From: Candidatus Omnitrophota bacterium | GTDB taxonomy: Bacteria > Omnitrophota > Gorgyraeia > 1-14-0-20-64-10 | Reading direction: 5' to 3' | DNA: 64,000 bases | Assembly: GCA_016177405.1 (NCBI GenBank) | Contig: JACOVG010000027.1 | Coordinates: 14,733 to 78,732 of the forward strand | In this document: one piece after another, positions 17,084-58,161 of the stretch | Layout of the letters: the number at the start of each line of letters is the position of its first letter | How positions within the stretch are numbered: position 1 is the first letter of the stretch | Notes under the pieces: model-generated | What the model saw: the letters and a program-made list of their open reading frames with translations, nothing else | Told to the model about the DNA's origin: nothing | Databases searched by the model: none | Made by a program: the position numbers and the translations under genes

Positions 17084-17102
17084 GGCCCCGGCTTAAGTTC
17101 TC

Positions 17103-17138: not shown

Positions 17139-17154
17139 ATAGAATAGCTACGCC

Positions 17155-19381: not shown

Positions 19382-20949
19382 AGCGGATTCGCAGGGCCCT
19401 GGTCAGCGTCTCCGACAAGGAGAACCTCATCCCCTTTGTGCAGGGCTTGAGGCGCTTAGGGGTACAGATCATCTCCACGGGCGGAACCGCCAAGCTTCTT
19501 AAGGACGCGGGGATCCCGGTCAAGGCGATCGCGGAATTCACCGGTTTTCCGGAGATCCTGACCGGACGGGTGAAGACCCTTCACCCCAAGGTGCACGGCG
19601 GCATCCTGATCAGCCGCGCCAACCGGCGGCATTTGGCCGAGGCCAAACGCCTGGGGCTTGAGCCGATCGACCTGGTGGTGGTGAACCTGTATCCCTTCGA
19701 GGAGACCGCCGCGCGGCCGGGCGTTTCTTGGGCGAAGCTCATCGAGCAGATCGACATCGGCGGGGTGGCCCTCATGCGCTCGGCGGCCAAGAACTTCTCT
19801 TCGGTCGGCGTGGTCACCGCTTCCTCCCAATATCAGGAGGTTTTAAGAGAGCTCAATCAGCGGGGGGGACAGCTCACCCACGCCACCCGGATGAGGCTCG
19901 CGGTGGAGGCCTTTTCCCAGTGCGCTTATTACGACGCGGTGATCCATCAGGTCTTGGCCCACCGACAGGGCCCCAGCCGCCGGAGCGATGGGCCTTCCTT
20001 GCTGGTCTTGGCCGCCAGAAAAAGGCAGACCCTGCGCTACGGGGAGAATCCGCATCAACCAGGTTTCTGGTACGAATGGCCCAGGCTCACCGGCGGGGCC
20101 CTTGGGATAAGCGGCGCCAGGCAATTGCACGGTAAGGAGCTTTCCTTCAACAACCTGCTGGACCTGGACGCGGCCCTCTCCATGGCGTCCGGATTCTCCA
20201 AGCCCACGGCCGCGGTGGTCAAGCACGCCAATCCCTGCGGGATCGCTTCGGCGGCCGCGCTTTCCCGGGCCGTGGCCAGGGCCTTCGCCACCGATCCGGT
20301 CTCCGCCTTCGGCGGGATTGTGGGGGTTAACCGGCGGGTTGACCCAGCCGCCGCGCGGGCCATCGCCGGAAGCGGCTTCTTGGAGTGCGTGGTCGCGCCG
20401 GGTTTCAAGCCGGAAGCCCTCCGGATTCTCACGGTGAAGAAGAATCTGCGCGTCCTGGAGGTCCCCGGATGGGGCAAGGCCCGGGGCCGGAACTGCGTGG
20501 ATTTCAAGCCCATCGGGGGAGGGCTCCTCGTCCAGGGGCCGGACCGAATCTTGAAACCTCCTTCCCGCTGGCGGGCCGCCACCTCGGCCAAGCCCACCGC
20601 CAGCCAGATGCGCGATCTCCTTTTTGCCTGGAGGGTTTCTCAACACGTCCGCTCCAACGCCATTGTGGTGGTCAAGGACGAAGCGACGGTTGGAATCGGG
20701 GCCGGCCAGCCGAGCCGGGTGGACAGCGTCCGGATCGCGCTGAAGAAGGCCGGCCGGCGGGCGCGGGGCGCGGTCTTGGCCAGCGACGGTTTCTTCCCCA
20801 AGCCGGACGGCCCGCGGCTTGCCGTCCGGGCGGGGATCGCGGCGATTGCGCAGCCGGGCGGCTCGATCCAGGATCCCGCGGTCATCCAGGCGGCGCAGCG
20901 GGCCCGCGTTCCCATGCTCATGACCGGAGAGCGCCACTTCCGCCATTAG
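19378..20949 (+). CDS. purH: Bifunctional AICAR transformylase / IMP cyclohydrolase
   Basis: GTG start overlapping the pabC stop. MGS-like N-domain (RALVSVSDKENLIPFVQGLRRLGVQIISTGGTAKLL) and AICARFT domain. The supplied ORF extends further upstream into pabC in another frame. Confidence 0.85.
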   Translation: MKRIRRALVSVSDKENLIPFVQGLRRLGVQIISTGGTAKLLKDAGIPVKAIAEFTGFPEILTGRVKTLHPKVHGGILISRANRRHLAEAKRLGLEPIDLVVVNLYPFEETAARPGVSWAKLIEQIDIGGVALMRSAAKNFSSVGVVTASSQYQEVLRELNQRGGQLTHATRMRLAVEAFSQCAYYDAVIHQVLAHRQGPSRRSDGPSLLVLAARKRQTLRYGENPHQPGFWYEWPRLTGGALGISGARQLHGKELSFNNLLDLDAALSMASGFSKPTAAVVKHANPCGIASAAALSRAVARAFATDPVSAFGGIVGVNRRVDPAAARAIAGSGFLECVVAPGFKPEALRILTVKKNLRVLEVPGWGKARGRNCVDFKPIGGGLLVQGPDRILKPPSRWRAATSAKPTASQMRDLLFAWRVSQHVRSNAIVVVKDEATVGIGAGQPSRVDSVRIALKKAGRRARGAVLASDGFFPKPDGPRLAVRAGIAAIAQPGGSIQDPAVIQAAQRARVPMLMTGERHFRH

Positions 20950-20951
20950 TT

Positions 20952-22319
20952 GTGACTTATCCTGAAGCGATTCAATACCTCAACACCCTGCCGAATTACG
21001 AACAGCTGACGGCCTACCGGTACGGGGAGGCCTTGGGGCTGGACCGGATCGAAAGCCTCCTTCGCGGGCTTGGGAATCCCCACAAGAATTTCGCCTCGCT
21101 TCATGTGGCGGGGACGAAGGGCAAGGGCTCCACCTGCGCCTTTGCCGCCTCGATCCTTCAGGCGCTGGGCCGGAGGGTCGGCCTCTACACCTCGCCGCAC
21201 CTCGCCTCGCTCCGGGAGCGGATTCAGGTGAATGGCCGGCCGGTCACGCCGGAGCGATTCGCCGAAACGGTCCAGGCCGTCATGCCCCGCATGCCAGGAA
21301 ATCTCACCTTCTTTGAAGCGACCACCGCCTGCGCCTTTCTCTATTTCGCGCGGGAGCGGGTGGAGGACGCCGTGATCGAAGTGGGTCTGGGCGGCCGCCT
21401 GGACGCCACGAACGTCATCGCCCCCGCGGTCAGCGTGGTCGCCCCGATCAGCCTGGACCACACGGACAAGCTGGGTTCCTCCCTGGGCGAGATCGCAGGG
21501 GAAAAGGCGGGAATCATCAAGCCGGGGACGCCCGTCGTTGTTTCGCGGCAGCCGAGGGAGGCTTCCCAGGTGATCGAGGCGGCGGCCCGGGCGCTTCAAG
21601 CCCCCGTGCACCGCTTGGAAGAAGAGATTCAGATTGAAGGGGTCCGCGTTTCCACCGCCGGCAGCCGGGTTTCCTTTCGGACGCCCCGCGCCTTTTACCC
21701 CGATCTGCTCATTCCCCTGCTGGGCCGCCACCAGATCGCGAACGCCGCCTTGGCCGTTCGGGCGGTTGAACTCGCCCGGCCCGAGGTGGAGGTGCCGAGG
21801 CTGCTGTCGGCGGTTCGCGAGGGATTGGCCGAAACCCGGTGGCCAGGGCGCTGTCAGCTCGTTCCGGGCTCGCCGCCTATTCTGCTGGATGGGGCGCAGA
21901 ATGGGGCCTCGGCCGAGGTGCTGGTGTCGGCGGTTCGGGAGCTCTTCCCGGGGCGCAGGGTGATTGGCGTCGTCGGGATTTCAGGGGATAAAGACATTGC
22001 GGGGATCGCCCGGGTTTGGGGCCCCTGGATGAGCGAGCTTATTCTGACCCGGGCGCAAGCGGCCCGCGCGGAATCTCCCGAGCGGTTGGCCGAGGCTTTT
22101 TCTCAATGGCACCCCAGGCCCCATCTTGCCGCTCGCGTGCCCGACGCCCTCGAGCTGGCCAGGGGCAGGTCCCGCCCAGACGATCTGATGGTGGTGGCCG
22201 GTTCTTTGTTCTTAGTCGGCGAAGCGCTGGAGGCCCTGGGGCGGTCTAGCGGCGGCGCCTTCGAAGCTTCCGGGTCAGAAAGAGGATCCCGCCCAGGGCT
22301 CCATACCCTACCTGGATGA
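20952..22319 (+). CDS. folC: Folylpolyglutamate synthase / dihydrofolate synthase
   Basis: GTG start 3 nt after the purH stop (VTYPEAIQYL). Mur-ligase P-loop HVAGTKGKGST and YTSPHL motif. Confidence 0.8.
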   Translation: MTYPEAIQYLNTLPNYEQLTAYRYGEALGLDRIESLLRGLGNPHKNFASLHVAGTKGKGSTCAFAASILQALGRRVGLYTSPHLASLRERIQVNGRPVTPERFAETVQAVMPRMPGNLTFFEATTACAFLYFARERVEDAVIEVGLGGRLDATNVIAPAVSVVAPISLDHTDKLGSSLGEIAGEKAGIIKPGTPVVVSRQPREASQVIEAAARALQAPVHRLEEEIQIEGVRVSTAGSRVSFRTPRAFYPDLLIPLLGRHQIANAALAVRAVELARPEVEVPRLLSAVREGLAETRWPGRCQLVPGSPPILLDGAQNGASAEVLVSAVRELFPGRRVIGVVGISGDKDIAGIARVWGPWMSELILTRAQAARAESPERLAEAFSQWHPRPHLAARVPDALELARGRSRPDDLMVVAGSLFLVGEALEALGRSSGGAFEASGSERGSRPGLHTLPG

Positions 22320-23193
22320 AGGCGCACACGAGAGACAAGGACAAGGCCCCTTCCGCGGATACCCCCACCCGGCCCATGAACAGGATCGTGGCCCCCTCCC
22401 GGATTCCCCAGCCGTTCAGGGAAACGGGAATCATCGCCACCGTCGAGATGATGGGAACGGTCAGCAGGAGGTAGACGGGCGGGATTCCGAGCTTCATGCC
22501 GGAAGAGACGGCCCAATAGGTTCCGGTCATCAGAAACTGAAGGCCCACCGACAGGCCAAACGCCGACAGCAGGATCTTCGGTTTGCGCCGGTACCGGACG
22601 ATCGATTCCTGAAACTGCGTGGTGTGGGCCGCCAGCGTGCCCAGGCCGATCTTCCCAAACGGCTTCAGGAAGGTTCGCAGCACCCGGCGGGAGCCCAGGA
22701 TGCCCACCGCGATTGCCATCGCCCCGCACAATCCCAGGAATCCCGCCCGAACGATCGGATCCTCCCGAGCGGCAGGGAAGGTGAACCAGGAGATTGACGC
22801 CAGCGTGACCAAACCCGCCATTCCGGCGAGGCGGTCCACCAGGATCGAAGCCAGGGAGTCCCGCCAGTTCCCCGTGACCTTGATCAGGTCGTAAGCCCGG
22901 AAGACGTCGCCGCCGATGGTGGTGGGCAGGAAGATGTTGAAGAAGTGGCTCACGAAGAAGGAATTGGCCAGGAAGGGCCAGCTCAAAAGGGGATGGGCGG
23001 GGACCAGGAGCTTCCAGCGGGTGACACACAGCAGCTCCGACACCCCGAACAGCAGCACCGCCGTGACGAGCCACCCCGGATGGATCGACCGGGACACCTC
23101 CCAAAGTCTCTGGACGTCCACCTCCCGGAAGATCCAGAGGAAGGCGCCGGCGGTGATCGCGGCCCGGACAACGAACGAGAGGATGGCGCGCAT
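22246..23193 (-). CDS. UPF0104 / lysylphosphatidylglycerol-synthase-TM-like (flippase-like) membrane protein
   Basis: 315 aa, about eight hydrophobic helices. Family-typical N-terminus MRAILSFVVRAAITAGAFLWIF and RRRRR C-terminus. It overlaps the 3' end of folC convergently. Confidence 0.55.
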   Translation of the reverse strand: MRAILSFVVRAAITAGAFLWIFREVDVQRLWEVSRSIHPGWLVTAVLLFGVSELLCVTRWKLLVPAHPLLSWPFLANSFFVSHFFNIFLPTTIGGDVFRAYDLIKVTGNWRDSLASILVDRLAGMAGLVTLASISWFTFPAAREDPIVRAGFLGLCGAMAIAVGILGSRRVLRTFLKPFGKIGLGTLAAHTTQFQESIVRYRRKPKILLSAFGLSVGLQFLMTGTYWAVSSGMKLGIPPVYLLLTVPIISTVAMIPVSLNGWGIREGATILFMGRVGVSAEGALSLSLVCAFIQVGYGALGGILFLTRKLRRRRR

Positions 23194-23978
23194 CAGGGGG
23201 TCTGGTTGATGTAGTCGTCGAACTGGATCTGTCCGGTGGCCTCCGAGCGGACCTCCCGGAGCCGCTGGCCGAAATAGGGATGGGTTCTGAAGTAGGAGAA
23301 TCTGCGCGGGGCCTGCCGGAAGGTGTGCTCTTTAAGCCGCGTCAGGAAGTCCACCCCCGCCAGGGGCGCGTATCCGGCCCGCTTGAGATAGCGCGTGCCC
23401 AGGCGGTCGGCCTCCAGCTCGTCGGCCTGGGAATAGGCCAGCAGCAGCGAAGCAAAGGCCAGGTCCATGCCGGCTTGGGTCCTGGCATCGGCCGACCCGG
23501 TGCTGGCGGTCAGCACCTGCAGAAGCTGCAGCCCCATGGCCCCCTGGATCCTCTTCACCACGTGTTTGGCGGCCACGTGCCCGATCTCATGGCCCAAGAC
23601 CGAGGCCAGCTCATCGTCGGATTTGGCCATCTCCATGAGCCCGGAGGTGACGTAGATGATCCCTCCCGGCAGGGCAAAGGCGTTGGGCTCCTTCTCCTCG
23701 ACGATGTGGAAGCGGTAGACCAAGTCCTTCCGGTCGCTCTGGGCCGCCACCCGGGCGGAGGTCTTATCCAACCGGGCCAAAAGCTCCGGATCGTGGACGA
23801 GCTTATACTCCTGCTCCACCCTCTTGGCCACCGCCTCCCCCATCTGGACCTCCCGCTCGGTGTTGAAGAAAAGGGTTTCGCTCTTGTCGGTGGCCACGTT
23901 GTAGCTCGTGGCGCAGCCCGAAAAAACAGCGGTAAGCAGTAGATGGTAAGCAGTAGGCAATAAGGAAAACCGTTTCAT
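23193..23978 (-). CDS. M48-family zinc metallopeptidase lipoprotein (BepA/YfgC-like)
   Basis: Lipoprotein signal MKRFSLLPTAYHLLLTAVFSGC and HEIGHVAAKH zinc motif. The start is set at the internal ATG that yields the signal peptide. Confidence 0.75.
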   Translation of the reverse strand: MKRFSLLPTAYHLLLTAVFSGCATSYNVATDKSETLFFNTEREVQMGEAVAKRVEQEYKLVHDPELLARLDKTSARVAAQSDRKDLVYRFHIVEEKEPNAFALPGGIIYVTSGLMEMAKSDDELASVLGHEIGHVAAKHVVKRIQGAMGLQLLQVLTASTGSADARTQAGMDLAFASLLLAYSQADELEADRLGTRYLKRAGYAPLAGVDFLTRLKEHTFRQAPRRFSYFRTHPYFGQRLREVRSEATGQIQFDDYINQTP

Positions 23979-24117
23979 CCCGTCTAGTTTCCCACAGATG
24001 CCAGGTGCCCGCAAGACCCCAGGTCGCGAAACACGTTAATAGGAATAGAAATCTCGTGTACACACTTGATTATTTCGAGGGCATCAGGTAGGCTTTTTGT
24101 ATGGGTCGAATTCCGCC

Positions 24118-27105
24118 ATGAGGCCAAACCCGCGATTCTTCTTAGCAAGATTTTTCGCCCCTTTGCTCTCGCTGGGGCTTGCCCTGCCCGATGTCTCTTT
24201 CGCACTTCGGCAGAACATCGAGGGTACCACCCAAGCTGGCTTAGAGGAGGCCCTTCGGCCCATTGTTGCCGCCGGCTTGGAGGAGGAGAGGAGACTGTCG
24301 GAGGCCTTGGAGGGGGCGGCTTTCCAAGGAGGGGCGCGTCTCATGAAGGACATCATCCGGTGGGCCGAAAAAGATCTGGCGGCAGCCGAAGCGGCAACCG
24401 CCGGTTTTTACGAGTTTTCTCAAGCGCGGCTCCCGGATTCGGTCGGCCAAGACAGTAATGGATCAGGCCATCTTATCGCCAGGTTTCTGCGGCTCGCCCA
24501 AAGAGCTCCCACCAGCCCTCCTCCAGCCTGGCCTCGGGCGGGGCCGAGTCAGGAAGAGTCCGCCGGGTCTGACGGAAGGCAAAAAAGCCGTCTCCTGAAG
24601 GCGCCCAAAAGCTATTTCCCCTGGGCCGGCCCCAAGGAGTTTCAGGCAGGCATGAAGGCCGCCCGGGAACGGTTGGCCACAGCGGGGACGGATGAGGAAG
24701 AGGAAAAGGATCCCCCCAGCAAAGAGGAGATCAAGCGGCTGGAAGGGCCCCTCCACCAAGGGCTTCACGCTGAAAACATCCTCCGAGACTATTCGCGCCT
24801 TGTTCAGGAGGCGGAGGATCTGCTGGTCCGGCTTCACCACAGGCTTATCCTCGCTTGCATGAAGGATAAAGGGATTACGCGCGACAGGGATCATCAAATC
24901 TTTGAGGATGTACGCCAAGGCGGCTACCTGGCCTTGCTAAACGCGATTCGGAACTACAATCCCAATCAAGGAACCGCCTTTTCCACCTATGCCTACCAGG
25001 CCATCCGCCGGGAGATCCACGACACCCTTCAGGCGATGTCCAGAAGACTTAGAATTCAGCCGGACGATCTGGAACTCTTTTTCAAGACCGCCCAAGAGCT
25101 GGAGAAGAAGCAGGGGATAGAGCCAGGGCCCGAGGAGATCGCGGAGGTCTTAGAGAAAGAATCCTCTTGGGCCGAGGCGATCTCCCATTGGAGGCAAAAC
25201 CCAGACTCCCTCAACCGGCCGGTAGGCGACGCCCAGCTTCTTGATCTCATCGAGCCCGAACCATTGGAGCCAGAATGGGAGGAAATCGAAGAGGAGAAGC
25301 GCGGCGTCCGTAAGGTTCTTGAGGCGGTGCGCCGCGAGAGCCCCGATGGCAGGCGAGACGCGCTGGTCCTCAAACTTTATTATGAGCTGGGAACCAGGAA
25401 TGGCCCTTACACACAGGAGTGGATCGCCAAGAGAACGGGGATCACCCCTCAACGGGTCAGCCAGATTATCCAGGATGGCATCCAGACGGCCCAAGAGCGT
25501 CTTGAGCTGACCCGTGAAGGGCGCGTGGAACCGATTCGTCCCGAGGCCCCCGGCCCCGCCGCGGGGGTTGCTTCCGGCGACGGCCGGGACAACGATGCCG
25601 ATGTCTATCTGATCGACGTGATGGGGATTCCGTACACGAGCCCCCTCTTTGAGCCGCTAAGCCGGCTTAAGAGGAGAGATCTCGAGAAGATCCAAGGGGC
25701 GCTGTCGGCCCATAGGCCCTTTCCCCTTAAGATCAAGCCAGGGGAATCTTTCCCGCGGCGCTTGACGCGGATCCGCCAATTTTACGGCCTGACCTCCAAG
25801 GCGGCAGCCCAAGGGGCAGGGGTGAGCGCGACAACCTACTCCGCCTGGGAGAACGGGCGCCAGTTGCCCAAGGGAGATTCTCTCAAGCGGCTGGCCCGCT
25901 TCTATGCTGAAGCCTACCGTCTCCATCCGGACGCGGTTCAGAGATACTTGGGGATGAGATCTCCTTGGTCGGTCTTAAGAAAGCTGAAGGGCAAGCCCTC
26001 GCGGCTGATCCTGAAGGGTCTGCGGGTTTCACAGTGGCACTCCGCCGAGGGATTCGCCAGGGCCGCGCTGCCCGGGATGAATCCAAAGAGCTACGTCTTA
26101 TGGGAGAAGGGAAGGAACGTCCCGCCGCTGGCCTTCTTGAGAAGGATCGTCTCCTTTTACGTGAGAGAGCGGGGTTTTCCCCAGCGCTCCCTGGAGAGGA
26201 CCCTTGGGATTCCAAGCCCCAAAGAGGTTCTTAAGGAGTTGAAGGGCAGGCCCCTGCCTGAAATACTGCGCGGCCTGCGCGAGTCGGTTCCCCTGACCAT
26301 CGCCGAACTGGCCTCTTTGGCAAAGATCGGCCCCAGAACCGTCACCCGGTGGGAAAAGGGCGAAGTGGTTCCCCTGCCGGCCAATCTTCGGAAGCCGGCG
26401 GAGGTTTATGCGCGGGGGGGTCATTTTCCAGAGAAAGAGCTCTTGGCCCTTTTGGATATCCCTTCGACAGAGCTGTTTCTTCAAGAGATCGCCTCTCGCC
26501 GGGGCGATGGGCCCAAGCTTCTTGATTCGCTGGAACACTACCTCGGCCTTTCCCAGTCTGGGATGGCCCGCCTGGTCGGTGTCGAGAAATCAACCTATCG
26601 GTTTTGGAAGCAAGGGAGGATAAAGCCGCCTCTTTCCCGGCGCTATCAAATGGTTGCGCGCCTCGCTGAAGAGGGCCGCCTTCCTGTCGAGCCCCTCCGA
26701 GAGGCCTTTGGCCTGGATGGGCCCGAGAAGACGTTGAGCCGTTTAAGAAGCATGCCGTTTCCGAAGGCCCTCCGGCACCTTCGCTGGGTGTACGGCATCG
26801 GAATGTCGAAGGTCGCCGGCCGCCTCGGTGTTTCTCGGTTTACCTACCGAGGACTGGAAAAGAGGGGGACCTTGCCGGCCCGATATCTTCCGACGCTGGC
26901 CGCTTATTACAGCGGTCTGGATGGCCTGCCTTCGCCCAAGCTCTTGGCTGCCCTTGAGGCCGGCCGTCAAAGGTGGCAGTCGGCTGATCGTGTCCGCAGG
27001 ATGGCGGCCGCCCCCGCCGCGCTCTCCGGCGCGGGGCTGGAGGAGGGTCTTTCGGAGCGGCTTCAGAGAGAACGCGGGACCGCCTGGCTCGGCGGGCAGG
27101 CATAG
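24118..27105 (+). CDS. GLEE-punctuated family protein: leader, sigma-70-like module (regions 2, 3, 4), five tandem HTH (XRE-like) repeats of about 85 aa each
   Basis: The start is set at the second ATG (MRPNPRFFLARFF...) because the first ATG lies inside the conserved promoter-like box. Leader ends ...VSFA-LRQ. GLEE at aa 48 and 60 (24097 numbering) and AGLEE 23 aa before the stop. FSTYAYQAIRREI (region 2-like) and LKLYYELG...TQEWIAKRTGITPQRVSQI (region 4-like). Five repeats carry the wEkG core of Cro/C1-type HTH. Confidence 0.6.
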   Translation: MRPNPRFFLARFFAPLLSLGLALPDVSFALRQNIEGTTQAGLEEALRPIVAAGLEEERRLSEALEGAAFQGGARLMKDIIRWAEKDLAAAEAATAGFYEFSQARLPDSVGQDSNGSGHLIARFLRLAQRAPTSPPPAWPRAGPSQEESAGSDGRQKSRLLKAPKSYFPWAGPKEFQAGMKAARERLATAGTDEEEEKDPPSKEEIKRLEGPLHQGLHAENILRDYSRLVQEAEDLLVRLHHRLILACMKDKGITRDRDHQIFEDVRQGGYLALLNAIRNYNPNQGTAFSTYAYQAIRREIHDTLQAMSRRLRIQPDDLELFFKTAQELEKKQGIEPGPEEIAEVLEKESSWAEAISHWRQNPDSLNRPVGDAQLLDLIEPEPLEPEWEEIEEEKRGVRKVLEAVRRESPDGRRDALVLKLYYELGTRNGPYTQEWIAKRTGITPQRVSQIIQDGIQTAQERLELTREGRVEPIRPEAPGPAAGVASGDGRDNDADVYLIDVMGIPYTSPLFEPLSRLKRRDLEKIQGALSAHRPFPLKIKPGESFPRRLTRIRQFYGLTSKAAAQGAGVSATTYSAWENGRQLPKGDSLKRLARFYAEAYRLHPDAVQRYLGMRSPWSVLRKLKGKPSRLILKGLRVSQWHSAEGFARAALPGMNPKSYVLWEKGRNVPPLAFLRRIVSFYVRERGFPQRSLERTLGIPSPKEVLKELKGRPLPEILRGLRESVPLTIAELASLAKIGPRTVTRWEKGEVVPLPANLRKPAEVYARGGHFPEKELLALLDIPSTELFLQEIASRRGDGPKLLDSLEHYLGLSQSGMARLVGVEKSTYRFWKQGRIKPPLSRRYQMVARLAEEGRLPVEPLREAFGLDGPEKTLSRLRSMPFPKALRHLRWVYGIGMSKVAGRLGVSRFTYRGLEKRGTLPARYLPTLAAYYSGLDGLPSPKLLAALEAGRQRWQSADRVRRMAAAPAALSGAGLEEGLSERLQRERGTAWLGGQA

Positions 27106-27171
27106 GGGCGGATTTTTTTGTCTTGGGAATTAATTTATATGCAAAATATTTATTGATTTATAACTATCGGT

Positions 27172-27752
27172 GTGTTAAGCTTCCTCCCCATGATGAAAAG
27201 AGAAAAACACAAGCCACTTCCAACAGCGCAAGTCGCGCAGAGGATCCTTTTCATCCGCGGGCAGAGGGTGATGCTGGACAGCGACCTAGCGGTCCTTTAT
27301 GGAGTTGAGACCAAAGTCCTTAATCGAGCGGTGAGGCGGAATGAAGCCCGCTTTCCTGCAGATTTTATGCTCCAACTCACCCAAGAGGAATACAGATTTT
27401 TGAGGTACCAATTTGGCACCTCAAACTTGAGGTCACAAATTGTGACCGCAAGTTCCAGGCACGGCGGGAGACGCTATCTGCCCTTGCTTTCACCGAGCAA
27501 GGCGTCGCTATGCTCTCAAGCGTTTTGAATAGTGAGCGAGCAATTCAAGTGAACATCTCCATCCTACGGGCTTTCGTGAGGCTGCGAAGGCTCTTGGCCG
27601 CCCACAGGGGGCTTGCCAGAAAGCTGGAGGAGATGGAGAGAAAATACGACGCCCAATTCAAGGCGGTGTTTGACGCGATCCGACAGCTTATGGCGCCGCC
27701 GAAAGAATCCCGCCGGAAGATTGGGTTTCATACCCAAGGGTGCAGGGCTTGA
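27172..27752 (+). pseudogene. ORF6N-domain (KilA-N-related) gene disrupted by a 1-nt deletion and a roughly 33-nt palindromic insertion; paralog of 29615..30148
   Basis: Two overlapping ORFs (27172..27528 and 27510..27752) together align colinearly with the intact paralog ([18 protein letters not shown], RFPxDFMxQL, ...[20 protein letters not shown]). Relative to the paralog, one base is lost after GGRRYLP. An extra segment made of two back-to-back perfect hairpins is present at 27418..27447. Confidence 0.6.
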
Positions 27753-27781
27753 ACCCGGCTCCCCTTACAAAGGAGAAGACG

Positions 27782-28078
27782 ATGACGAAAACGGTTGAGT
27801 TGTCGGTGGTGAGGCTAAACAAGTTCGAAGGGGAAGGGACCGCCAGGGCCTTTTGCGATGTGGCGGTTGCGCAGTCGTTTCTCATCAAGGGAGTGAAGGT
27901 GATCGAGGGAAAGAAGGGGTTATTCGTCAGCATGCCGCGCGAGCAGGGCAAGGACGGCCAGTGGTACGACACCGTGATTCCCTTGTCCAAGGAAGCTCGC
28001 CAGGAGATCTCCGAGGTGGTCTTGGAGGCCTACCGGTCGGGCGCCCAGGCGCCGGCGCAGGCCCCGGCAGGGGAATAG
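27782..28078 (+). CDS. spoVG: SpoVG family protein
   Basis: Translation MTKTVELSVVRLNKFEGEGTARAFCDVAVAQSFLIKGVKVIEGKKGLFVSMP... matches the SpoVG fold signature. The start is taken at the internal ATG. Confidence 0.7.
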   Translation: MTKTVELSVVRLNKFEGEGTARAFCDVAVAQSFLIKGVKVIEGKKGLFVSMPREQGKDGQWYDTVIPLSKEARQEISEVVLEAYRSGAQAPAQAPAGE

Positions 28079-28267
28079 AGGAAAAGAGGATACAGGATGG
28101 GGCGGCCGCTCCCCGCGGCTGCCCTCCCCTTCCCATGAAAGAAGCCGTTCTCACGGAGCAGATAGATCCCCGGATCTTGTTGATCCGCTTGGCGCTCAAA
28201 ACTTGAGATCGCATTGGCTACAGTCTGAGGAGATGGGGTCTAGGGGATGATATAATTTCAGCGACGG

Positions 28268-29521
28268 ATGCGACTCTCCCAATGCCCTGGCAAAGTCTTC
28301 AGCGTGAGGGTTGTTGCCACTTTTCTGGCCCTGAGCCCCATTCTGTCTGCGCCCGCCCTTGCCCTGCGTGACCCAGAAGCGCGAGAGAAGAAGCCGGAGG
28401 TTCTGGGTGGTCTGGAGGAGGTTCTTCGCGGCGATCCCACTACTTCTGCAACGGCTCCTTCCGCGGCTGTCTCCCTAAGCTCCGCCGCCGGGCTGGAGGA
28501 GGGGTATCGGGTGGTACCTGTGACGGAAGAGTACGCCCTGCGGCACGCGGAGGAGTTGGCGGCCATCGATGCGGGGGATCCCGTGTGGAAGAAGGAAGGG
28601 CGTTGGGGTCCGGAGCGTTTCGCCACGGACGTGCGGCCTACCACGGGGACGCGGCTACAGGGTCTTTGGAAGTTCAGCTTCGTTGCGGAGGATGTTTCGG
28701 GGATTCCCGTGGCCTATATCTACGCAGCCGATGGCCAGCCGGACATCCCCGTGACCGCAAGGTACCGCGGGGCGTTTATCGCCCGGGTGAGTGTACGGCC
28801 GAACCAACAGGGACGCAGATTGGGCCCGCGTCTTCTGTTGGCCGTCGCCCGCGCGGCGAAGGAAGCTGACGTAGGTCCCTACGTGACGCTGGAAACGGAC
28901 AAGGAGAACACCCGCGCCCGCCATGTGTACGAGTCACTGGGTTTTCGGAGCGTCGGGGAACGGCTTGAAGAAAAGAAGGGAGTTACTTTCATCGAGTACG
29001 CTGTTCTTGTAGAAAACCTCATCCAGCGCGCGGAGGAGAAGCTCGCCGCCGGCCTGGAGGAGTGGGTGCCGAGGTGGCTGAAGGGACTGGCGACGCCTGA
29101 GGAGTTGGAGCATTGGATTCATCATGGGCACGAAGCCCTGGCGGGGTCTCCGTCGGTGGCGGTGCTGTTTGATCCGGGCTTGGTGCCTGGGAGGGACGAC
29201 GGGGATCGGGAGCTGTTGCTGCTCGAACTGGAGGGACAGATGCGGTCGGTGTTTGCCTTGCCGGAAGAGGTACGGTTCCGGATTGGACTGCGGGGGGCGA
29301 AGGCGGATTGGGAAAGAGAATTCCGGATTATCGAGGTGGTGCGGCATCCGGAAGGCAGGCCGGAGGCCCCTCCCCTTCCGATGGGTGCGTTGCCGTTGGT
29401 GGTTGCGGAGGCGCTGGCCTCTCCCCACCCGCGGTTCTATACCGACCCGCTGATTTACGCCGATTTGACGGAGCTTACCCTGCCGCAGGCCCTGACGGAC
29501 CTGACGGATCTGTTCGCCTGA
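28268..29521 (+). CDS. GLEE-punctuated family protein: leader, GNAT acetyltransferase domain, unknown C-terminal domain
   Basis: Leader ...PALA-LRDPE. GLEE at aa 48, 75 and 262. Canonical GNAT motif A (ARVSVRPNQQGRRLGPRLLLAV) and motif B (YESLGF). TATAAT lies 12 nt before the ATG and there is no SD. Confidence 0.65.
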   Translation: MRLSQCPGKVFSVRVVATFLALSPILSAPALALRDPEAREKKPEVLGGLEEVLRGDPTTSATAPSAAVSLSSAAGLEEGYRVVPVTEEYALRHAEELAAIDAGDPVWKKEGRWGPERFATDVRPTTGTRLQGLWKFSFVAEDVSGIPVAYIYAADGQPDIPVTARYRGAFIARVSVRPNQQGRRLGPRLLLAVARAAKEADVGPYVTLETDKENTRARHVYESLGFRSVGERLEEKKGVTFIEYAVLVENLIQRAEEKLAAGLEEWVPRWLKGLATPEELEHWIHHGHEALAGSPSVAVLFDPGLVPGRDDGDRELLLLELEGQMRSVFALPEEVRFRIGLRGAKADWEREFRIIEVVRHPEGRPEAPPLPMGALPLVVAEALASPHPRFYTDPLIYADLTELTLPQALTDLTDLFA

Positions 29522-29614: not shown

Positions 29615-30148
29615 ATGCGGAAGAACCCTCTTGCTCTCGCCAGGTCAGTTCATGCGGAAATCATCGAGCGCCGGATCCTGCTGATCCGTAAGCAGCGGGT
29701 CATGCTGGATTCGGATCTGGCCCAGCTTTATGGAGTAACCACGTTTAACCTCAACAAGGCCGTCAAGCGCAACAGGGAACGCTTTCCAGAGGATTTTATG
29801 TTCCAGTTGTCCGTGGGAGAGGCCGGAAACTTGAGATTCCAATTTGGAATGTCAGGTTGGGGAGGCAGACGCTATCTTCCATACGCCTTCACTGAGCAGG
29901 GAGTGGCTATGCTCTCCGGCGTTCTGCGTAGCAAGCGAGCCATCCAAGTGAACATCGCCATCGTGCGGGCATTCGTGCGGTTGCGGCGAATGCTGGCGTC
30001 ACACCGTCACCTGGCGCAGAAGCTGGTGGAATTGGAGCGCAAGCTCGCGAATCATGATCAGAAGATACATTCGATCTTCGACGCGATCCGGCAGCTGATG
30101 GCGCCACCCGCTCCGGCTCGACGCAGGATCGGTTTTCATTCCACGTAA
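29615..30148 (+). CDS. ORF6N-domain (KilA-N-related) protein
   Basis: 177 aa. [42 protein letters not shown] is the ORF6N signature. A TTGACA-17-TAGCCT promoter-like element sits upstream. Confidence 0.7.
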
Positions 30149-35037: not shown

Positions 35038-35044
35038 GAAAAAG

Positions 35045-37724: not shown

Positions 37725-40700
37725 ATGAAAACAACCCCGATGCGGCGTTTCTTTTTTCTCCGCTTTGTGAGCGCTTTTCTTATTCTCACGCTGGCCGTTC
37801 CCTGCCCAGCCCACGCCCTGCGCGCCGAGGGTCCCACCTCCAGCAAGGTTGCGGCCGGCTTGGAAGAGGCCCTCGGATCTAAAGCCGCCGACCCGCCGAA
37901 GAAGTCCAAGATTGATGTACGGACGAAAGAACTGTCGGTAAAAGACACCGTGCTGACGGTTCAACCCCTTTCACCGGACGATCTCCTGAATTACCGAGAG
38001 GATCTTTGGGAGCTCCTTAAACTCATCCCTACGGACATTCCGCACGATGAAACAATCATAGATGAGATGCGGCAAGGGAAGTGGTACGACCGGGATTTAA
38101 GTTTCGCGGTCTGGGATAAAATGTCGAATCGCCCCATCGCTCTGGCCACCCTGATGATCTCTACAGATCCCCGCTACAAGCTTGGGACGGCGGTCATCCT
38201 TGAGAACTTCGCTGTCCATCCGGATTTTCAGGGGACCCCCGCAACCAGCTGGCTGCTCCACCGTGCCTTTTCCAACGCGCACGCGCTCCTTTCTCGACTT
38301 CATAAGGGGGGACCTCTCTATGCGCACCTGCTCACCATGAAGGGGGGTCGTCCGGATAAGCTGGGTTCAGAACGGGCGGAGCGTTTTTACACCAAGATGG
38401 GAGGGGCGGTCAAGACAAGAATCCCGGTAGGTTGGGAGGTTAAGGCCGGAGAATTCGAGGGTCATGTCTTCAAGAATCCTCATCTGGAGTTTGAGTTTGC
38501 CCTTCCTGGATGCCTCGCGACGATCGAGCAGGAGTTTCAAAAAAAGCTGTCCTCCGGCCTGGAGGAGACGCAGGCGGTGGAGGTTCTTCAATGGAGCATG
38601 GAGGATCTTAGAGAGGTCCTAAGGAAGCGCGGTCTCCTTCGGCTGGGTCAAACCGATGACCAAGCGGCCGAGCTGGCCTTGAAGATGACGCTTGAGGAAA
38701 GATTCAAAACCCGGCCAACGAAACCGATTCTCCTTCGGGTTCTTCCTTCTAACCAGACGCAGGCGAGATCTCTGGAGGAGATCGGGCTTCAGCCTTTGGT
38801 GAGCCGAGAGGATATCGTAAGCCGCCTGGAACTTAGCGCTTATGAGGACCACGCCATTTCCCGCATCCGCCTGGAACAAGAAGGAGAACACCAGCATCTC
38901 TCGGTGCCTCTTTCCAAGCCGCTTAAAATTCCTGGGACAGGGCAATCTCTTGTGGAGGTCCGGATATCGTCCGGAGACCGGCGTTTTGATCAGCTTCCAG
39001 AGGTGTCGCGGCTTGTCCAGGAGCTTCGTGAAAGGAAGGCCAGCGCCTCCGATAAGCGAGATTTCCTCCAAGAGCTGCCCGGGCGGCTGCGAAACGGGAA
39101 GCTTCGCCTCTCTCACCTGCCGGCGTTTCCGCTTGGGTTGAGGGAGGAAGCGGACGTAGAAACGTTTGCCCGACGGGTTCAGCTTGACCCCTCCCACTCA
39201 AACCTTCTGGTATCGGAGGGGAAAGCCCAGGAAGCGCGCGAGCGCGAGGAACGATCCGCCAAGGCGAAGCCTCGAGAATCTCTTCCGGCGGAACCTCCAA
39301 AGAAGGATAAGCCCCCCGCGGCTGATCAGGAATCGGTGGCCCAGGCGCGCGAACTGGCCCGGAAGATTGCGCCGGAGGCCGCCCACGCCCTGGAGAGGCT
39401 TCTTAAAACCTTGGCTCTGGCGGCCTCTTGGGCTGGGATGCCGCCCAATTCAAAGGAGGTTGAAGCGCTGGGGGAAGAGATGCGCCGAGCCCTTGAGCCA
39501 GAACAGGTTGTGAGGAACCACGTTCGGAAAGGCCGCGCGCCTAACGAGGAGGAAGCGAAACGACAGCTTGCCCTGCTGGAAAAGCAGCTGCGGGAACGGA
39601 TGAGGCGATTGTACAAAACGAAATCAAGGGATGAGGTGGTAGCTTCCTTTCTCTCGCAGATTCAGCGGATGGCGACGGAAAAGAATTGGGCCAGCTATTG
39701 GTGGCTGGATCCGGACGTCGAAGTGCCTGTGCCCGAGGCGGTGACGGAGCTCTACCTGGTGGATCCTCCCGAGCTGGATGAGGCCGCCACCGCGGTCCTC
39801 TTGGAAGCGACCCGCTTGCTTCAGGAGGCCTTGGTACACCATCCGCCGGAAGATCCGAAGAGCTTGCTGTTTCTTCGAAAACTTCAGCTTAGCGGGGTGA
39901 GCTACTTGGCGTCAAAGAAAAAGCTTCCCACGGAACTGGCCGACGCCTTCGTTCGCGACCCAGGGACCTACCAGGGGGAGCTTTGGCTGGTGCGCCAGAA
40001 CTTTTGGTACCAGAAAATGCGCACGCAGAAGATTAGCGAAAACCACACGGGTCCACCGGGCTTGGTGCAGAGAGCTCCTCGTAAGGGGAGGGTGGAGAAT
40101 TCCAGCCATGAAATTGATTTTGGAACCCCCGGGCAGCTTTCAAGATCCTCTTTGAAGAAGATGCTTCTGACCAAGATGAAGCTGGTCCAGCAGCCCGTCG
40201 TCAGCGCTCCCCGAACGAATGGGGAGCCCGCAGGGCCGACGTATGACGACCATACCCGAGCCTTCATCCTTCTGGAGGTGGCCAGTCAGCCGGGGCACTT
40301 TTCGAAACCTGGAAAGTTGGAGGACGAGAGAAAATCATTCCTGCGGGTTATGTGGATTAGGGTAAGCGAGTTACAGCGCGCGCTCAAGCAGCCTGAACCG
40401 ACGTTTAAAGATGCCTACCAAAGAGGAAGACCTTTTCTTGAAGCCATTCAGATACCGGAAGAGGTCAGGCGGGATGTCCTCTTGGAGGATCCCGCGGCCG
40501 TTATCAACCTCTCTGCGATTATGTTGGAGGTGATGGCCCGGATCGCCCAGAAGCTGTCAAGCGATTTTCCGTTGGAAGAGGGTCTCGAAGGTAGTCGGGT
40601 CTTGCGCAGAGAGCTGACGTGGCGCTACCCCGCCTATCGGCCCTGGTGGCCCGGTCTGGCAGCCGCCGGCAAAGGTCAACCCTCCGCCGGCCCCTCGGCA

Positions 40701-54177: not shown

Positions 54178-57100
54178 ATGAGAAGACCTACCGTTGCGCT
54201 GGCCACAGGCGCCTTTTTCCTTGCCCAACTCTTTGGGCCGGGGCCCTCCCATGCTCTCCGCCCGCAGCAGGACGTGAGGGTCGGCTTGGAGGAGGCGCTC
54301 GCGCCCGCCGCTGGGCTTGAGGAAACGGCGAAGGCGGCGAATATTATCCGAAAGAACCACCTGGTGGAGGGATTACGCGGAGGCGAGTCAGACGCGACGG
54401 TAGTTTCGGCCTTCCTGAATCAGATACGAAGGCCGCCAACGGATGCGATAGCCATCTCAAGGCCCCCCTTGTCTGAAGAGCCGTACCGGACCGGCCCCCT
54501 CCTGCGGCGGGAGATGGAGAAGGTATCGTGGGGCAGAAGCTACGATGAAAAATACTGGCTGCCGGCCTTGGAACTGGTTCTTCAAGCGGCGGCCAGGCGG
54601 TTGAAGGTCGCCCCCAAAGAGCTTGGTCTCGTGAGCATGAAGCATCTCATGAGGCATCTCTTTCATGCCCGCGATCTCCAAGGGGATCTTCTCATGGGGG
54701 AGGATTCCGAATTGGATCTCTTCCGCTGGGCCTACCGGGAGATTCCCCGGACGGTAGCGCCCAAGCTTGCCTCCGGGGAGATCGATTCAAAGAAGCTCCA
54801 CGACGCCCTCGCCAATCCCTTCAAGGATTCCAACGATCGAGGCAACGACCAGGTGCAGCAAGCGATCTTTGAGTTGATGAGGGAGCATCCCGAACGGTTT
54901 GTAGATGATCCGAAAGAGCTGAAGGATAAGCCGCTGGAAGAGCTCGCGCCGATCGTCGAATCCTGGGTTCGCTTGGCCCTGGCCGCCAACCGGGTGGATT
55001 ACAGCCGGCCGGTGGCCTTGAAAGAGATCGAGAGGGTAGGAGGTCTGATTCCCTTTGTGAGGCGGGGGTTAGACACCCCATTTCTCGAGGCGCTGGGGCG
55101 AGACAACTATCTTAAGGAATTTGTTCAGCAGACCCTCGTCGGCTCTCCCGAGGTCTTTTTGGTCTATCTCGCCGACAACAACGCCGAGCTGACCGCGAGC
55201 TTGAAGCTGGCAGAGGTTCTCTTGTCGGCCAACCCCAACCTGGAGATCGCCTTTGTGGTCAAGGAGGATAACGGCGTCATGAACGACGCCTCGCACGAGG
55301 ACGCCTGGAGGATGATTTCCCACCAGCGCGATGGGGTGCCGGACATCTACGAGAAGCTGCGCGGCTATTTTCCAGATCGGTTCAGACTGCTTAAGGGACC
55401 CGGCTCCCAGGGGCTTCCCCTCAACGCCTTGCGAGCGGATGTGGCCGAGGCCTTGAGAGAGGCGGATGTCATCCTGGCCGAAGGGGAGGCCAACACCTGG
55501 ACGTTGAACGGACTGGACAAAGAGAGAATCTATCTTGCCTTGCGGCTAAAACAGGAAACATGGACGCGCCTCGTGTGGGGCATCGGCAAGGAGATTCTTT
55601 CTGATGATAAGCTGAAGTCCGAACAGCCGCCCGTCTTCGTCCGGATCGATGGGGCCCAGGGGGCATACTACCAGAACCCGCTCAAGGACCCCGACGGGGA
55701 AAACCCTTCCTGGACCATCTTAGAGAACTTGGACCCCTTGAAGCCGGCCCACGCGGGCTTGGAGGAGAAGGTGGCGCGGATATTGCCCGAGCAAATACTC
55801 CGGCAAGATTTCGGGAGGGTAAGGGAGGTTTCCTTTTTAATGGGTGGAGGGCTCGCGGCCTCAACGGAGAAGGCGCGTTTCCTGAAGTGGGATTCTTTCG
55901 AAGGCGAGCCGAGGGTTTTTGGGCACGACTCTTTCAAAACAGTTGTTTTCAGCCGCGGCGGAAATACCATCGCTTACGTGCCTTTCGATCAGACTGAAAA
56001 TAAGGGAGTCTCGGTCTACGATCTCGCCGAAAGGGCTGGCCGATTCATCCGAGTGGAAGAAGCCCGGGGCCCTGTCTTTCAGGCGGCGCTCGATCCCGAT
56101 GGAAAGCGATTGGCCCTTCTGTTTCTCGGCGAACCTAAAACCAAGGGAAAACCTAAGATCAAACTTCAAGTGAGAAATTCCACAACGGGCGAGCTTGAGC
56201 ACGACCTTGATATTTCAACGAAAGGCAAAAAGGTGCCGCTCCTTTTTACTCCTGATGGAAAGAAGCTGATAGCGGGGGAGTTTTTGGGCGATAACCCAGG
56301 TACCTCCCTCCGGTTTCTGGATCTTGAAACGAAGAAGGTTCATCCCTTGGCAGGCTCTTCCTCCGGCCTGCTCCAGTCGCTCCAGGCCTCCGACACCGCT
56401 TTGGTGGCCGCGGTGGCCGATGCCGATGGCAGCCGGTTCTACGCGATGACTTGGAATCTTACGGGAAAACCCACATCTCCCCGCGCCTGGCCGTTAGATC
56501 ATTCGGCGAGGTCGGTGGCCCTAAGCCCTGATGGTCGAACGATTGCCACCGGTAGGATAGAAGGGGAAATCCACCTTTGGGAAGTTGGCACGGGAAAAAA
56601 GAAGGCGATCTTGGAAGGCCACACCGGCGAGGTTTCCGCGCTGGCCTTCAGCCCGGATGGCAAGCGGCTGGCCAGCGGCAGCCGCGACGCCACGGTCCGC
56701 CTCTGGGACCTCGCCGGGCTGGAGGAGACGGAACCCGGCGTGCCATCGGCGGATGTGCGTTCCGGAGTATTGTCTGTCTATGGAAAACAGGCCCAGGCGC
56801 GTCCGCTGACGGAAACGGAGCTAAGAACGCACGAAGATACGTTCCGTGGGTTGCTGGAGTTGATCCCCACCGACAAAGATCGAGAAACGGATTTTATGGA
56901 CAGGCTTTTGAAAGGACACGAAGGGCCTGATCCGGGTTTAAGCTTCGCGGTTTGGACAGGGGGGCGCCCCATCGCGGTGGCGATCTTGACGAAATCGAAG
57001 AATCCCCGCTATCAAAATCGAAAGGCGGTCGTTTTGGAAGATGTCGCGGTGCATCCGGACTATCAGAGGACCCCGATCGCGGCTTGGCTGCTTTACCAGG

Positions 57101-58161
57101 CGTTCGCCAACGCTGCGCAACAGGGTTATTCATACGCCCATTGGCTGACGATGAGCGGCGGCCCTCAAAAAGAGGGTTGGCCGAATAAGTGGCCCGGCGC
57201 GGAGCGATCCGTCCCATTCTACAGGAAGTTCGCCGCCGTCATCAGGGAGGTCCGAATCGGTGATGCGGCGGCCGAATTTCCTGGGTACGCTTTCAGGAAT
57301 CCACATCTGGAGTTTGAGCTGGAACTGCCGGCCGGACTTGGCCAGCTCAAGACCAGTTTCGACGAGAAATCGAAAGCGCTGGTTACCGTCTACGGCGACC
57401 CTTGGGGCGAAGGTGTTCTGGACATCAGTGTTGAAATTCCGGTTGAGCCGGGAGCGAAGCGATCCGAGTTAGAGCGATTGCGGGATACTGCCGCGGATCG
57501 CCTGCACGAAGCGTTTCGTCAAAGCGCGTTGGTTTCACAAACCTCCTTCACGCTGACCCGTTTAGACGACAGCCTTTACTTGAGAGACCAAAGCGATGAG
57601 GTGAGCATACCCAACATTCATTTGTGGGAGGCGATCAAGAATACGGTGGATGCCTTGGCGGACCGTGCCGACGTGGAAAACCGGAGAATAGACGGCACGT
57701 TGTACGTTCGCGTTAGACGAAGAGAGGATCGCTGGCGAATTGAGTTTTCGGATAACGGCATCGGCTTTCCGGAACCCCCTTCAGATGTGTTCCGTTATGG
57801 ACCGTCGGCGCCCAAAGACAAAGAGCGCCGCTTGGGTTCGTTGGGAATGGCGTTAAAGGAGGGGTATTACGGCAACACGTTTTTGGGGCGGCACAGCGGT
57901 TTGTTGGTGATCGACAGCACGGATCGAAATTACAACGGTAGGCGAATGGTCTATGACGCGGTGGAGAAGAATGTTTTTCAAGAGCCCAGCCAAAGGAATG
58001 GCGGAATAGGGACGACGGTCATTTGGGAGTTCGGACCTTTGGCTGCCGGGCTGGAGGAGCCGCGGGCGGAGGCCCTGCGGGATGCGGGGTCCCCGCAAGC
58101 CCTGATCCCGACGTTTTCCGAAGGACTCAAGCAGACGCTGGAGTTGGCGGATGACCCCTGA
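54178..58161 (+). CDS. Large (1327 aa) GLEE-punctuated family protein: leader, DUF89-like, WD40 beta-propeller, GNAT-like, GHKL-type ATPase
   Basis: Leader ...[9 protein letters not shown]. GLEE at aa 36, 46, 527, 847 and 1291. DUF89-like motifs ([24 protein letters not shown]). WD repeats ([31 protein letters not shown]). GNAT-like domain paralogous to the first domain of the 37725 protein. Bergerat-fold motifs EAIKNTVDA (ExxxNxxDA) and DNGIGFP. Confidence 0.65.
   Translation: [1327 protein letters not shown]

Follow-up and report, generated by a model that had tools for sequence, protein, structure and literature searches.

A shared signal-peptide-like leader and junction motif in modular proteins of Candidatus Omnitrophota, a candidate portable export cassette

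The leader and its family

Several classes of bacterial proteins carry Sec-type signal peptides that are extended by an extra conserved motif, among them the YSIRK-G/S and KxYKxGKxW signals, the accessory-Sec signal with the AST domain of streptococcal serine-rich adhesins, the ESPR of autotransporters, and the Bacteroidota lipoprotein export signal. In these systems, the extra motif labels a class of cargo and governs not export as such but a later sorting step; it is sometimes found in the first mature residues, and the Bacteroidota signal sits just after the cleavage site. An N-terminal leader that likewise appears to combine a Sec-type signal with an extra motif is described here for four genes, designated p1 to p4, on a 64,000-nucleotide stretch of the metagenome-assembled genome of a Candidatus Omnitrophota bacterium, uncultured and from groundwater (GenBank assembly GCA_016177405.1; contig JACOVG010000027.1 of 117.6 kb, positions 14,733 to 78,732 of the forward strand), which is referred to as the window. 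Unlike in the specialised signals, to which its sequence is unrelated, the Omnitrophota motif occupies the c-region plus the early mature region and precedes modular cargo of cytoplasmic type.

With the generic Sec/signal peptidase I signals of diderm bacteria the leader shares a positively charged n-region, a core of about 12 residues, and a six-residue c-region with Pro at -4 and -6 and Ala at -3 and -1, but it is far more conserved (L-P-x-P-A-x-A), has an invariant L-R at +1/+2, and continues into a pro-segment that ends in GLEE[A]L. Sec substrates usually avoid basic residues at +1/+2. A likeness may also be drawn to the RxLR-dEER leaders of oomycetes and the PEXEL leaders of Plasmodium, which belong to eukaryotic pathways based on the endoplasmic reticulum. 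There, too, a signal peptide is followed, at a distance of a few tens of residues at most, by an L-R motif and then by an acidic E-E (here ...A↓LR...GLEEALR, the arrow marking the predicted cleavage point), the leader is conserved while the effector part is modular, diverse and quickly replaced, and the producers, as would probably apply here, live off other cells. In the window genes, however, the first Arg is absent (x-A-L-R), LR lies directly at the predicted cleavage site, and the organism is bacterial. MARTX toxins resemble the leader proteins in uniting unrelated enzymatic modules in one polypeptide, with short conserved junctions as possible protease sites; none of the MARTX features (cysteine protease domain, RTX repeats, type I secretion signal) was found in p1 to p4 or in 45 family members among the 25 of 52 matched families that were listed. 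In contrast to MARTX and to the giant proteins of Omnitrophota, the leader proteins have an N-terminal Sec-type leader and comprise 0.4 to 4 thousand residues rather than more than 10 thousand, and they lack the transmembrane-rich architecture of the giants. All these systems are to be taken as analogies, not as memberships.

Omnitrophota are widespread, uncultured and ultra-small; most of the phylum is proposed to consist of predators or parasites, and the molecules used on their hosts are unknown (PMC10066038). Preprints on giant Omnitrophota proteins include signal peptides on multi-enzyme giants, and cleavage of the giants has been proposed, with the cleavage points stated to be unknown (bioRxiv 10.1101/2023.11.21.568195). 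Neither the leader nor the motif G[LAM]EE is described in these preprints, and no description of either was found in the literature on the motif or on an Omnitrophota sorting signal.

The four leader genes, all located on the + strand, together cover 16.5 kb or 26% of the window. They are listed below with their parts; scores are those of a hidden Markov model (HMM) of the leader that was built from the 76 non-window family members only.

24118..27105, + strand: p1, whole gene, 995 amino acids; leader, sigma-70 r2/r3/r4, about seven Xre-type helix-turn-helix (HTH) repeats; 3 GLEE motifs, 1 Cys
24118..24204, + strand: p1 leader, predicted signal peptide, residues 1-29 (MRPNPRFFLARFFAPLLSLGLALPDVSFA); 45.8 bits
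24205..24255, + strand: p1 pro-segment LRQNIEGTTQA and first junction motif GLEEAL
24274-24285, + strand: p1 second AAGLEE
28268..29521, + strand: p2, whole gene, 417 amino acids; leader, GNAT module, C-terminal module of 156 amino acids; 3 GLEE motifs
28268..28363, + strand: p2 leader, predicted signal peptide, residues 1-32 (...SPILSAPALA); 46.1 bits
28364..28426, + strand: p2 pro-segment LRDPEAREKKPEVLG and GLEEVL; 'EKKPEVL' leader subtype, common to family members P0007, P0008 and P0013
37740..46004, + strand: p3, whole gene, 2754 amino acids; leader, then 8 GLEE-bounded modules
37740..37817, + strand: p3 leader, predicted signal peptide, residues 1-26 (MRRFFFLRFVSAFLILTLAVPCPAHA); 62.1 bits
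37818..37874, + strand: p3 pro-segment LRAEGPTSSKVAA and GLEEAL
54178..58161, + strand: p4, whole gene, 1327 amino acids; leader, ARMT1-like module, WD40 beta-propeller, GNAT plus GHKL-like module; 5 GLEE motifs, 0 Cys
54178..54255, + strand: p4 leader, predicted signal peptide, residues 1-26 (MRRPTVALATGAFFLAQLFGPGPSHA); 32.6 bits, weakest h-region of the four
54256..54300, + strand: p4 pro-segment LRPQQDVRV and GLEEAL
54313-54324, + strand: p4 second AAGLEE

The initial annotation, which was made from the letters of the window, had described four N-termini with a positively charged n-region, a hydrophobic core, and a small-x-small site followed by L-R, and had placed the leader of the p1 region (24118-24290, translated as MRPNPRFFLARFFAPLLSLGLALPDVSFA↓LRQNIEGTTQAGLEEALRPIVAAGLEEE) also at 28268, 37725 and 54178. 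Both statements are confirmed, the former by translation and alignment and the latter by the window-free HMM. The leader of p3 is intact with either of two alternative starts, 37725 (MKTTPMRRFFF..., which adds MKTTP) or 37740 (MRRFFF..., the NCBI call). All four leaders follow the scheme L-P-x-P-A-x-A↓L-R with a later [AST]-G-L-E-E-[AV]-L, the invariant columns being M1, R2, A-L-R, G-L-E-E and L.

Anatomical details were counted in 80 family members aligned on the A↓L junction. Positions -11, -9 and -7 are mostly Leu, Pro occupies -6 in 59 and -4 in 72 members, and -3 is Ala in 68, Val in 9 and Ser in 3; F, L, W, Y or H is found at -2, and Ala (77) or Gly (3) at -1. Beyond the junction, +1 is Leu in 76 and Met in 4 members and never Pro, and +2 is Arg in 79. 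Conservation at -6, -4, -3, -1, +1 and +2 is 74-99%. The median length of the leader is 29 residues, with a net charge of the n-region of +1 to +5 in 77 of the 80, a best 10-residue Kyte-Doolittle mean of 2.6 (median; minimum 1.9), and an uncharged stretch, c-region included, of 18 residues (median). According to the family logo, Arg +2 is followed by a segment of mixed charge that is roughly neutral in net terms. The family consensus reads ...KKRKFLRRFLALFLILSLALPSPAFA↓LRPQQEESPKVRAGLEEALRG. Leader subtypes are distinguished by ...PEQSPKVKAGLEE, ...EKKPEVL[AS]GLEE, ...PGIEG..Q[AS]GLEE and ...QQDV.VGLEE, and each of p1 to p4 carries a different one. A positive n-region, an uncharged h-region of roughly 7-15 residues and a c-region with small neutral residues at -3/-1, a helix breaker at -4 to -6 and no Pro at +1 are the features of a Sec/signal peptidase I signal, and the leader geometry is that of a textbook signal peptidase I substrate; p1 to p4 have no hydrophobic segment besides the leader. 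The motif is absent from ordinary signal peptides of this lineage, as seen for BamD (...ASEVQA↓AW) and for fibre proteins (GSAWA↓ET, ASARA↓ES).

A profile search of the kind envisaged in the initial annotation was carried out with HMMER against 1.84 billion representative proteins, using the four window leaders plus one metagenomic fragment as query. It returned 81 clusters with the leader at E<=1e-3; every match begins within the first ~28 residues of the protein, and every traced family member originates from groundwater or Candidatus Omnitrophota assemblies. With the window-free HMM, p3, p2, p1 and p4 are recovered in this order at E values of 2e-17 to 4e-8, while the next-best open reading frame (ORF) of the window reaches 7.7 bits and the BamD signal peptide of the window obtains no score. 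On 80 control loci (1.36 Mb), about 17 of which belong to other Omnitrophota, there was no match, the best value being 11.8 bits. The resemblance of the leaders is far beyond chance. Less exhaustive searches yielded little: a word-indexed search found only P0001 with the four-leader profile, nothing with the first 297 residues of p3, and only six short fragments with a 69-sequence leader profile; a genome-collection scan with p2 found no relatives, and a locus scan with the subtype alignment found only five metagenome loci.

Other signal types were rejected. A lipoprotein (signal peptidase II) signal does not apply, since all 80 leaders have Leu or Met, and none Cys, at +1; true lipoboxes of the window, such as those of LptE (...LSSC↓G) and of an M48 peptidase (...FSGC↓A), look different. 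In a type IV prepilin signal (short charged leader, G↓F/M, Glu at +5) the order would be reversed, the leader having its hydrophobic stretch before the junction and a polar segment after it. Models for curated sorting signals, including YSIRK, KxYKxGKxW, ESPR, the C-terminal domain of the type IX secretion system, PEP-CTERM and relatives, gave no match to p1 to p4 or P0001 at Pfam E<=0.01 and NCBIfam E<=1, the statement for p1 and p4 referring to the best 25 matches of longer lists.

Junction motif and exchangeable modules

The pro-segment is polar and ends in [AST]-G-L-E-E-[A]-L-[R]. Its initial description as placing the first GLEE at a fixed short distance needs correction to a narrow range: the G of the first GLEE lies 9, 11, 13 and 15 residues from the A↓L junction in the window genes, and mostly 8-17 (median 13) in the family. 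Similarly, the proposed signal peptidase I site with LR as the mature N-terminus is in accord with sequence rules, but LR is not confined to +1/+2. In two tandem giant genes of related contigs the arrangement is A-x-A↓D-T-L-R or A-x-A↓N-E-L-R, and since LR thus lies two residues past A-x-A in some tandem paralogues, it is to be regarded as part of the pro-segment.

GLEE occurs 19 times in p1 to p4 and once elsewhere in all six reading frames of the window. In the family, G[LAM]EE is found 238 times in 60,961 residues against 6.6 expected, and the module boundary motif reads P-x-[AS]-A-G-[L 62%, A 25%, M 12%]-E-E. Leader and junction motif are coupled. Each family protein is built as a series of modules, whose median length is 142 residues; in the window, the motif boundaries fall between Pfam domains, and homologous modules stand at different positions in different proteins. 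In p3, the order is GNAT, unknown, TPR, metallophosphatase, Fic, unknown, S-adenosylmethionine (SAM)-motif module, and a C-terminal module ending ...KQFA, which is homologous to the 156-residue C-terminal module of p2 (ending ...DLFA).

Most family modules have no domain match. The recognisable cargo domains are of cytoplasmic type, as had been stated at the outset, and include sigma-70 with Xre HTH, GNAT, WD40, TPR, metallophosphatase, Fic, ARMT1-like, SIS and GHKL. The assignment holds for sigma-70 r2/r3/r4 with Xre HTH, GNAT, Metallophos, WD40 and TPR, and for Fic at threshold (24.4 bits against a cut-off of 24); HATPase_c stays under its cut-off (22.7 against 26.4), and the methyltransferase has no Pfam match and only a visible motif of the LEIGAGPGGG type. 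For the C-terminal module of p2 and p3, no further relatives were found among the family modules. An AlphaFold model of p2, computed without alignment, was unusable, with a mean predicted local distance difference test score (pLDDT) of 34.

How leader and cargo behave in evolution can be seen from a groundwater metagenome locus, L082, which is syntenic with the window (LeuRS 73%, BamD 65%, MurJ 64% and LptE 59% identical). Downstream of both LeuRS and UvrC/MGMT, L082 has a leader gene where the window has one, and there the leader alone aligns, with 58% identity over 43 amino acids and 45% over 51. Apart from the leaders there is no alignment at E<1e-3, in a comparison of 2,754 with 2,379 residues. 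L082 thus keeps the junction and replaces the downstream domains, which is the opposite of the outcome that the initial annotation had set as a refutation, namely homologs losing A-x-A-L-R while retaining the domains. The leader subtypes are conserved at orthologous loci despite the replaced cargo. Other family members are likewise found among housekeeping genes, for instance between fabG and smc.

Some related contigs carry tandem arrays of giant genes, namely L086 at 255-22488 (4077, 1544 and >1780 amino acids) and L087 at 10001-24709 (3773 and 1122 amino acids). The first gene of an array has the canonical leader, and the later genes have two extra residues between A-x-A and LR. Genes of Peptidase_S74/BclA_C fibre proteins lie upstream in L087 and L082. 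The relatives also share the element GTTAGCAGTAA(C/T)(A/T)(A/T)AATCTA about 60-75 nucleotides ahead of the leader-gene start (L082 at ~5770-5790 and 21075-21095; L085 at ~9880-9900). For the window, a shared upstream operator in the form of the element TTAGCAGTAA of the relatives was rejected, with 11 matches against 10.4 expected.

Codon usage at the junction motif is biased. Between 24238 and 58059, 17 of the 19 window motifs have NTG GAG GAG; the junction Glu codons are GAG in 36 of 38 cases (63% gene-wide), and Leu is encoded by xTG in 17 of 19 (about 52%). In L082 (5839-12978), Ala is encoded by GCG in all six GAEE motifs, against 39% of the Ala codons gene-wide, and five of the six read GGC GCG GAG GAG. 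Nearly all L, A and M variants of the motif keep GGAGGAG, a Shine-Dalgarno-like string. It is possible that this string is kept through anti-Shine-Dalgarno pausing at module boundaries, the first of which would come about 40 codons in, as the signal peptide emerges, or through microhomology and gene conversion in cassette shuffling. Internal starts driven by GGAGGAG, yielding leaderless cytoplasmic modules, were rejected, because an in-frame ATG/GTG follows two codons downstream in only 3 of the 19 motifs (four codons downstream in 3 further window motifs) and the family logo shows no enrichment of M or V.

Among the 50 family members with 300 or more amino acids, 32 have Ala as their C-terminal residue (background 10%), examples being p2 (...DLFA, 29516-29518) and p3 (...KQFA, 45999-46001), and a hydrophobic strand followed by Ala closes many of the C-terminal modules (VLVLQMA, LLFA, AIFA). 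Ala also precedes the junction motif at -1 in 64% of cases. The C-terminal Ala would be consistent with modules of the form G-L-E-E...A and with cleavage at A↓G.

Export and its rival explanations

In 30 housekeeping proteins encoded in the window, Cys accounts for 1.03% of the residues; its share is only 0.15% in p1 to p4 and 0.16% in the family (Fisher p 2e-12), whereas the other amino acids are similarly frequent. Within the family, Cys falls from 1.13% ahead of the junction to 0.12% behind it, where 28 of the 48 members with 300 or more amino acids contain none. Cys poverty is typical of proteins that work outside the cytoplasm, and it is strongest where a second barrier is crossed unfolded, as by autotransporter passengers and by type I and type III substrates. 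The drop in Cys exactly at the junction supports export independently of the leader anatomy. A second independent support is the conservation of the leader in L082 in front of entirely different cargo.

The shared N-terminus is therefore probably, though with considerable room for doubt, a lineage-specific Sec-type (signal peptidase I) signal peptide with a conserved pro-segment, serving modular proteins as a portable export cassette. Following this scheme, the n- and h-regions would engage the Sec machinery (SecA, like TatC and Lnt, is encoded in the window), and signal peptidase I would cut after P-A-x-A, the cleavage at A↓L and the Sec dependence being predicted from sequence. The mature chain would start with L-R and a pro-segment of ~8-17 residues, reaching up to the first [AST]-G-L-E-E junction. 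Because the motif at this junction is the same as that between the downstream modules, any module recombined behind it would inherit an export-competent N-terminus, and any recombined cargo would become exported. Export would, on this scheme, proceed beyond the inner membrane. The LR...GLEE pro-segment may act as a secondary sorting or processing handle, and the G[LAM]EE sites may be cut, probably at A↓G, to release modules.

Several points weigh against this reading. It is hard to see what a sigma factor with seven HTH domains would do outside a cytoplasm, the Cys depletion is also compatible with periplasmic residence alone, and the h-region of p4 is weak (best 19-residue Kyte-Doolittle value < 1.6). 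Conservation of the leader (P-4, P-6, L+1, R+2) exceeds the needs of signal peptidase I, which points to an additional recognition partner. The invariant Arg +2 is atypical for Gram-negative Sec substrates, whose translocation is generally hampered by basic residues directly behind the cleavage site. Finally, no recurrent secretion, protease or chaperone gene was found beside the leader genes at the loci examined, where the neighbours are housekeeping genes.

One rival explanation is a dedicated non-canonical route, in which the leader plus LR...GLEE would be read by a lineage-specific translocon, an accessory Sec part, a paralogous signal peptidase or an outer-membrane exporter, the signal-peptide features making up only half of the signal. 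Such a route, which might by analogy work like the accessory-Sec signal with its AST domain or like RxLR-dEER/PEXEL leaders, is considered unlikely. Conservation extends past what signal peptidase I needs into the mature N-terminus, LR persists where two residues separate it from A-x-A, the subtypes are kept at orthologous loci with replaced cargo, and ordinary signal peptides of the lineage are devoid of the motif; yet candidate machinery is not seen beside any locus examined, ordinary Sec targeting needs no more than the n/h/c anatomy, and the route overlaps the Sec-type cassette, which already grants the pro-segment a secondary role. It is somewhat more doubtful still that the leader is an uncleaved signal anchor (N-in/C-out) tethering the module arrays to the periplasmic face, with P-x-P-A-x-A-L-R as a membrane-boundary or partner-binding motif. 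Such an anchor would likewise explain the Cys depletion and would agree with the leader being the only hydrophobic segment of p1 to p4, with Arg +2 and the extra conservation not required by signal peptidase I, and with the mostly membrane-associated architectures predicted in the Omnitrophota giant-protein preprints. The hydrophobic part, however, is short for a transmembrane helix, as the last six residues of the uncharged stretch are Pro-rich (P-6, P-4) and only about 12 hydrophobic ones are left, and so near-perfect a -3/-1 rule (A77/G3 at -1) is the hallmark of cleavage.

If the leader proteins stayed inside, the leader could be a cytoplasmic membrane tether or pro-sequence, with activation by proteolysis in the manner of pro-sigma-K and pro-sigma-E of Bacillus. 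Although p1 belongs to the sigma-70 family and every cargo domain that can be recognised is of a cytoplasmic type, this reading has little probability, for it would leave unexplained both the ten-fold drop in Cys that starts at the junction and why a -3/-1 geometry classic for cleavage should lie on the trans side of a positive-inside n-region. Export in the folded state through Tat would be fitting for cytoplasmic-type domains that bind cofactors. The window encodes TatC as well as a Rieske protein whose TRREFL signal is genuine, p3, p4 and a few relatives begin with MRRFFF... or MRRP..., and basic charge close to the cleavage site is reminiscent of a 'Sec-avoidance' feature. A Tat signal was nonetheless rejected: of the twin-arginine motif (S/T)-R-R-x-F-L-K, no more than 11 of the 80 leaders show even RR with two hydrophobic residues behind it, no Tat-signal model of Pfam or NCBIfam matched p1 to p4 or P0001, the leaders are short with strongly hydrophobic cores, and the avoidance of Cys argues for unfolded rather than folded passage. 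At the family level the Tat route is thus largely refuted and very improbable. A chance likeness of ordinary signal peptides, or a start-codon artefact, is scarcely credible. Signal peptides in general do look alike, and NCBI and other gene callers differ in the starts of p1, p2 and one L082 gene, but the independent HMM gives 33-62 bits against <=12 for all other ORFs in 1.4 Mb, the exhaustive search returned 81 N-terminal matches, and the flanks of the junction are conserved at 74-99%.

Given the Sec-type cassette as the preferred reading, Cys-free versions of cytoplasmic domains would be expected for unfolded passage across a further barrier or for work outside the producer cytoplasm. As the cargo is suited to a cytoplasm and the producer is probably a predator or parasite, an effector role of the exported modular proteins would be most plausible. 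A more far-reaching possibility, regarded as rather doubtful, is an unrecognised system of effector production: the dedicated leader would serve export and onward delivery, the junctions would double as processing sites and as microhomology for shuffling, and the Cys-free enzymes, including the sigma factor, would act inside the host or prey. Such a system, with its junctions kept as GGAGGAG, might represent a bacterial counterpart of RxLR/PEXEL effector repertoires, a parallel that is offered with the same reserve.

The leader would provide a one-line sequence rule for listing the candidate exported or effector repertoire from genomes, and the junction motif would supply candidates for the processing sites that are missing according to the giant-gene literature. 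The leader would also enlarge the still short list of specialised signal peptides by which a class of cargo is marked, and the family would show how domains are shuffled in nature while the export cassette in front of them stays constant. Were the leader an ordinary Sec signal conserved by descent, it would still be a useful family marker, albeit mechanistically ordinary.

Genomic setting of the leader genes

The window has a G+C content of 62.7%, and its LeuRS is ~61% identical to LeuRS of other Omnitrophota. In NCBI, p1 to p4 correspond to MBI1953606 (MBI1953606.1), MBI1953608, MBI1953617 and MBI1953628, respectively, with annotations that go no further than 'sigma-70 family', 'GNAT family' or 'tetratricopeptide repeat' protein. 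They are surrounded by ordinary housekeeping genes, including those for PurH, a Mur ligase, an M48 lipoprotein peptidase, AccA, LeuRS, ComEC and BamD as well as LptE, HolA, MurJ, UvrC, PrfB, SecA and Lnt; TatC and a bc-type complex are encoded farther upstream. The M48-family metallopeptidase gene (23193-24014, - strand; lipoprotein signal ...AVFSGC↓A) is divergent from p1. Its product could be a candidate processing enzyme, although no such neighbour recurs at other family loci.

Gene callers often cut or skip the leader. The NCBI starts of p1 and p2 lie 15 and 12 codons farther in, and the second L082 leader gene (21141) was called from an internal ATG, its true start being a GTG. As a consequence of such clipping, surveys of annotated proteins will under-count the leader family.

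None of p1 to p4 has a Shine-Dalgarno sequence in its upstream region (24078-24117, 28228-28267, 37690-37739 and 54138-54177), whereas some housekeeping genes do, for example AAAGGAGG ahead of 30161. A TATAMT-like -10 box is located ~14-41 nucleotides upstream of the ATG of each leader gene, and AGGTA(T/G)(A/G)CTT(T/C)TT is found upstream of three of the four. These signals suggest independent, possibly co-regulated transcription units with short 5' leaders.

On both sides of p2 there are genes with an ORF6N domain (KilA-N-like, phage-associated), at 27172-27752 and 29615-30148. The upstream copy is apparently split by a frameshift (118 plus 80 amino acids) and is followed by a SpoVG-like ORF (27740-28078). 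G+C drops to 0.45-0.56 around 27100-27900, and together with the ORF6N genes this may indicate what is left of a mobile element. At 13511-15834, a tandem pair of D-Ala-D-Ala-ligase-like ATP-grasp genes, with weak similarity to TTL and RimK (amino-acid ligases), is of note solely because the junction motif ends in Glu-Glu; no link has been established. Two adjacent tRNA genes (34954-35120, - strand) overlap the 5' part of the mechanically predicted ORF 34553-35089, and the response-regulator gene in this ORF probably starts farther in for that reason, at MARAKLKILLVDDE.

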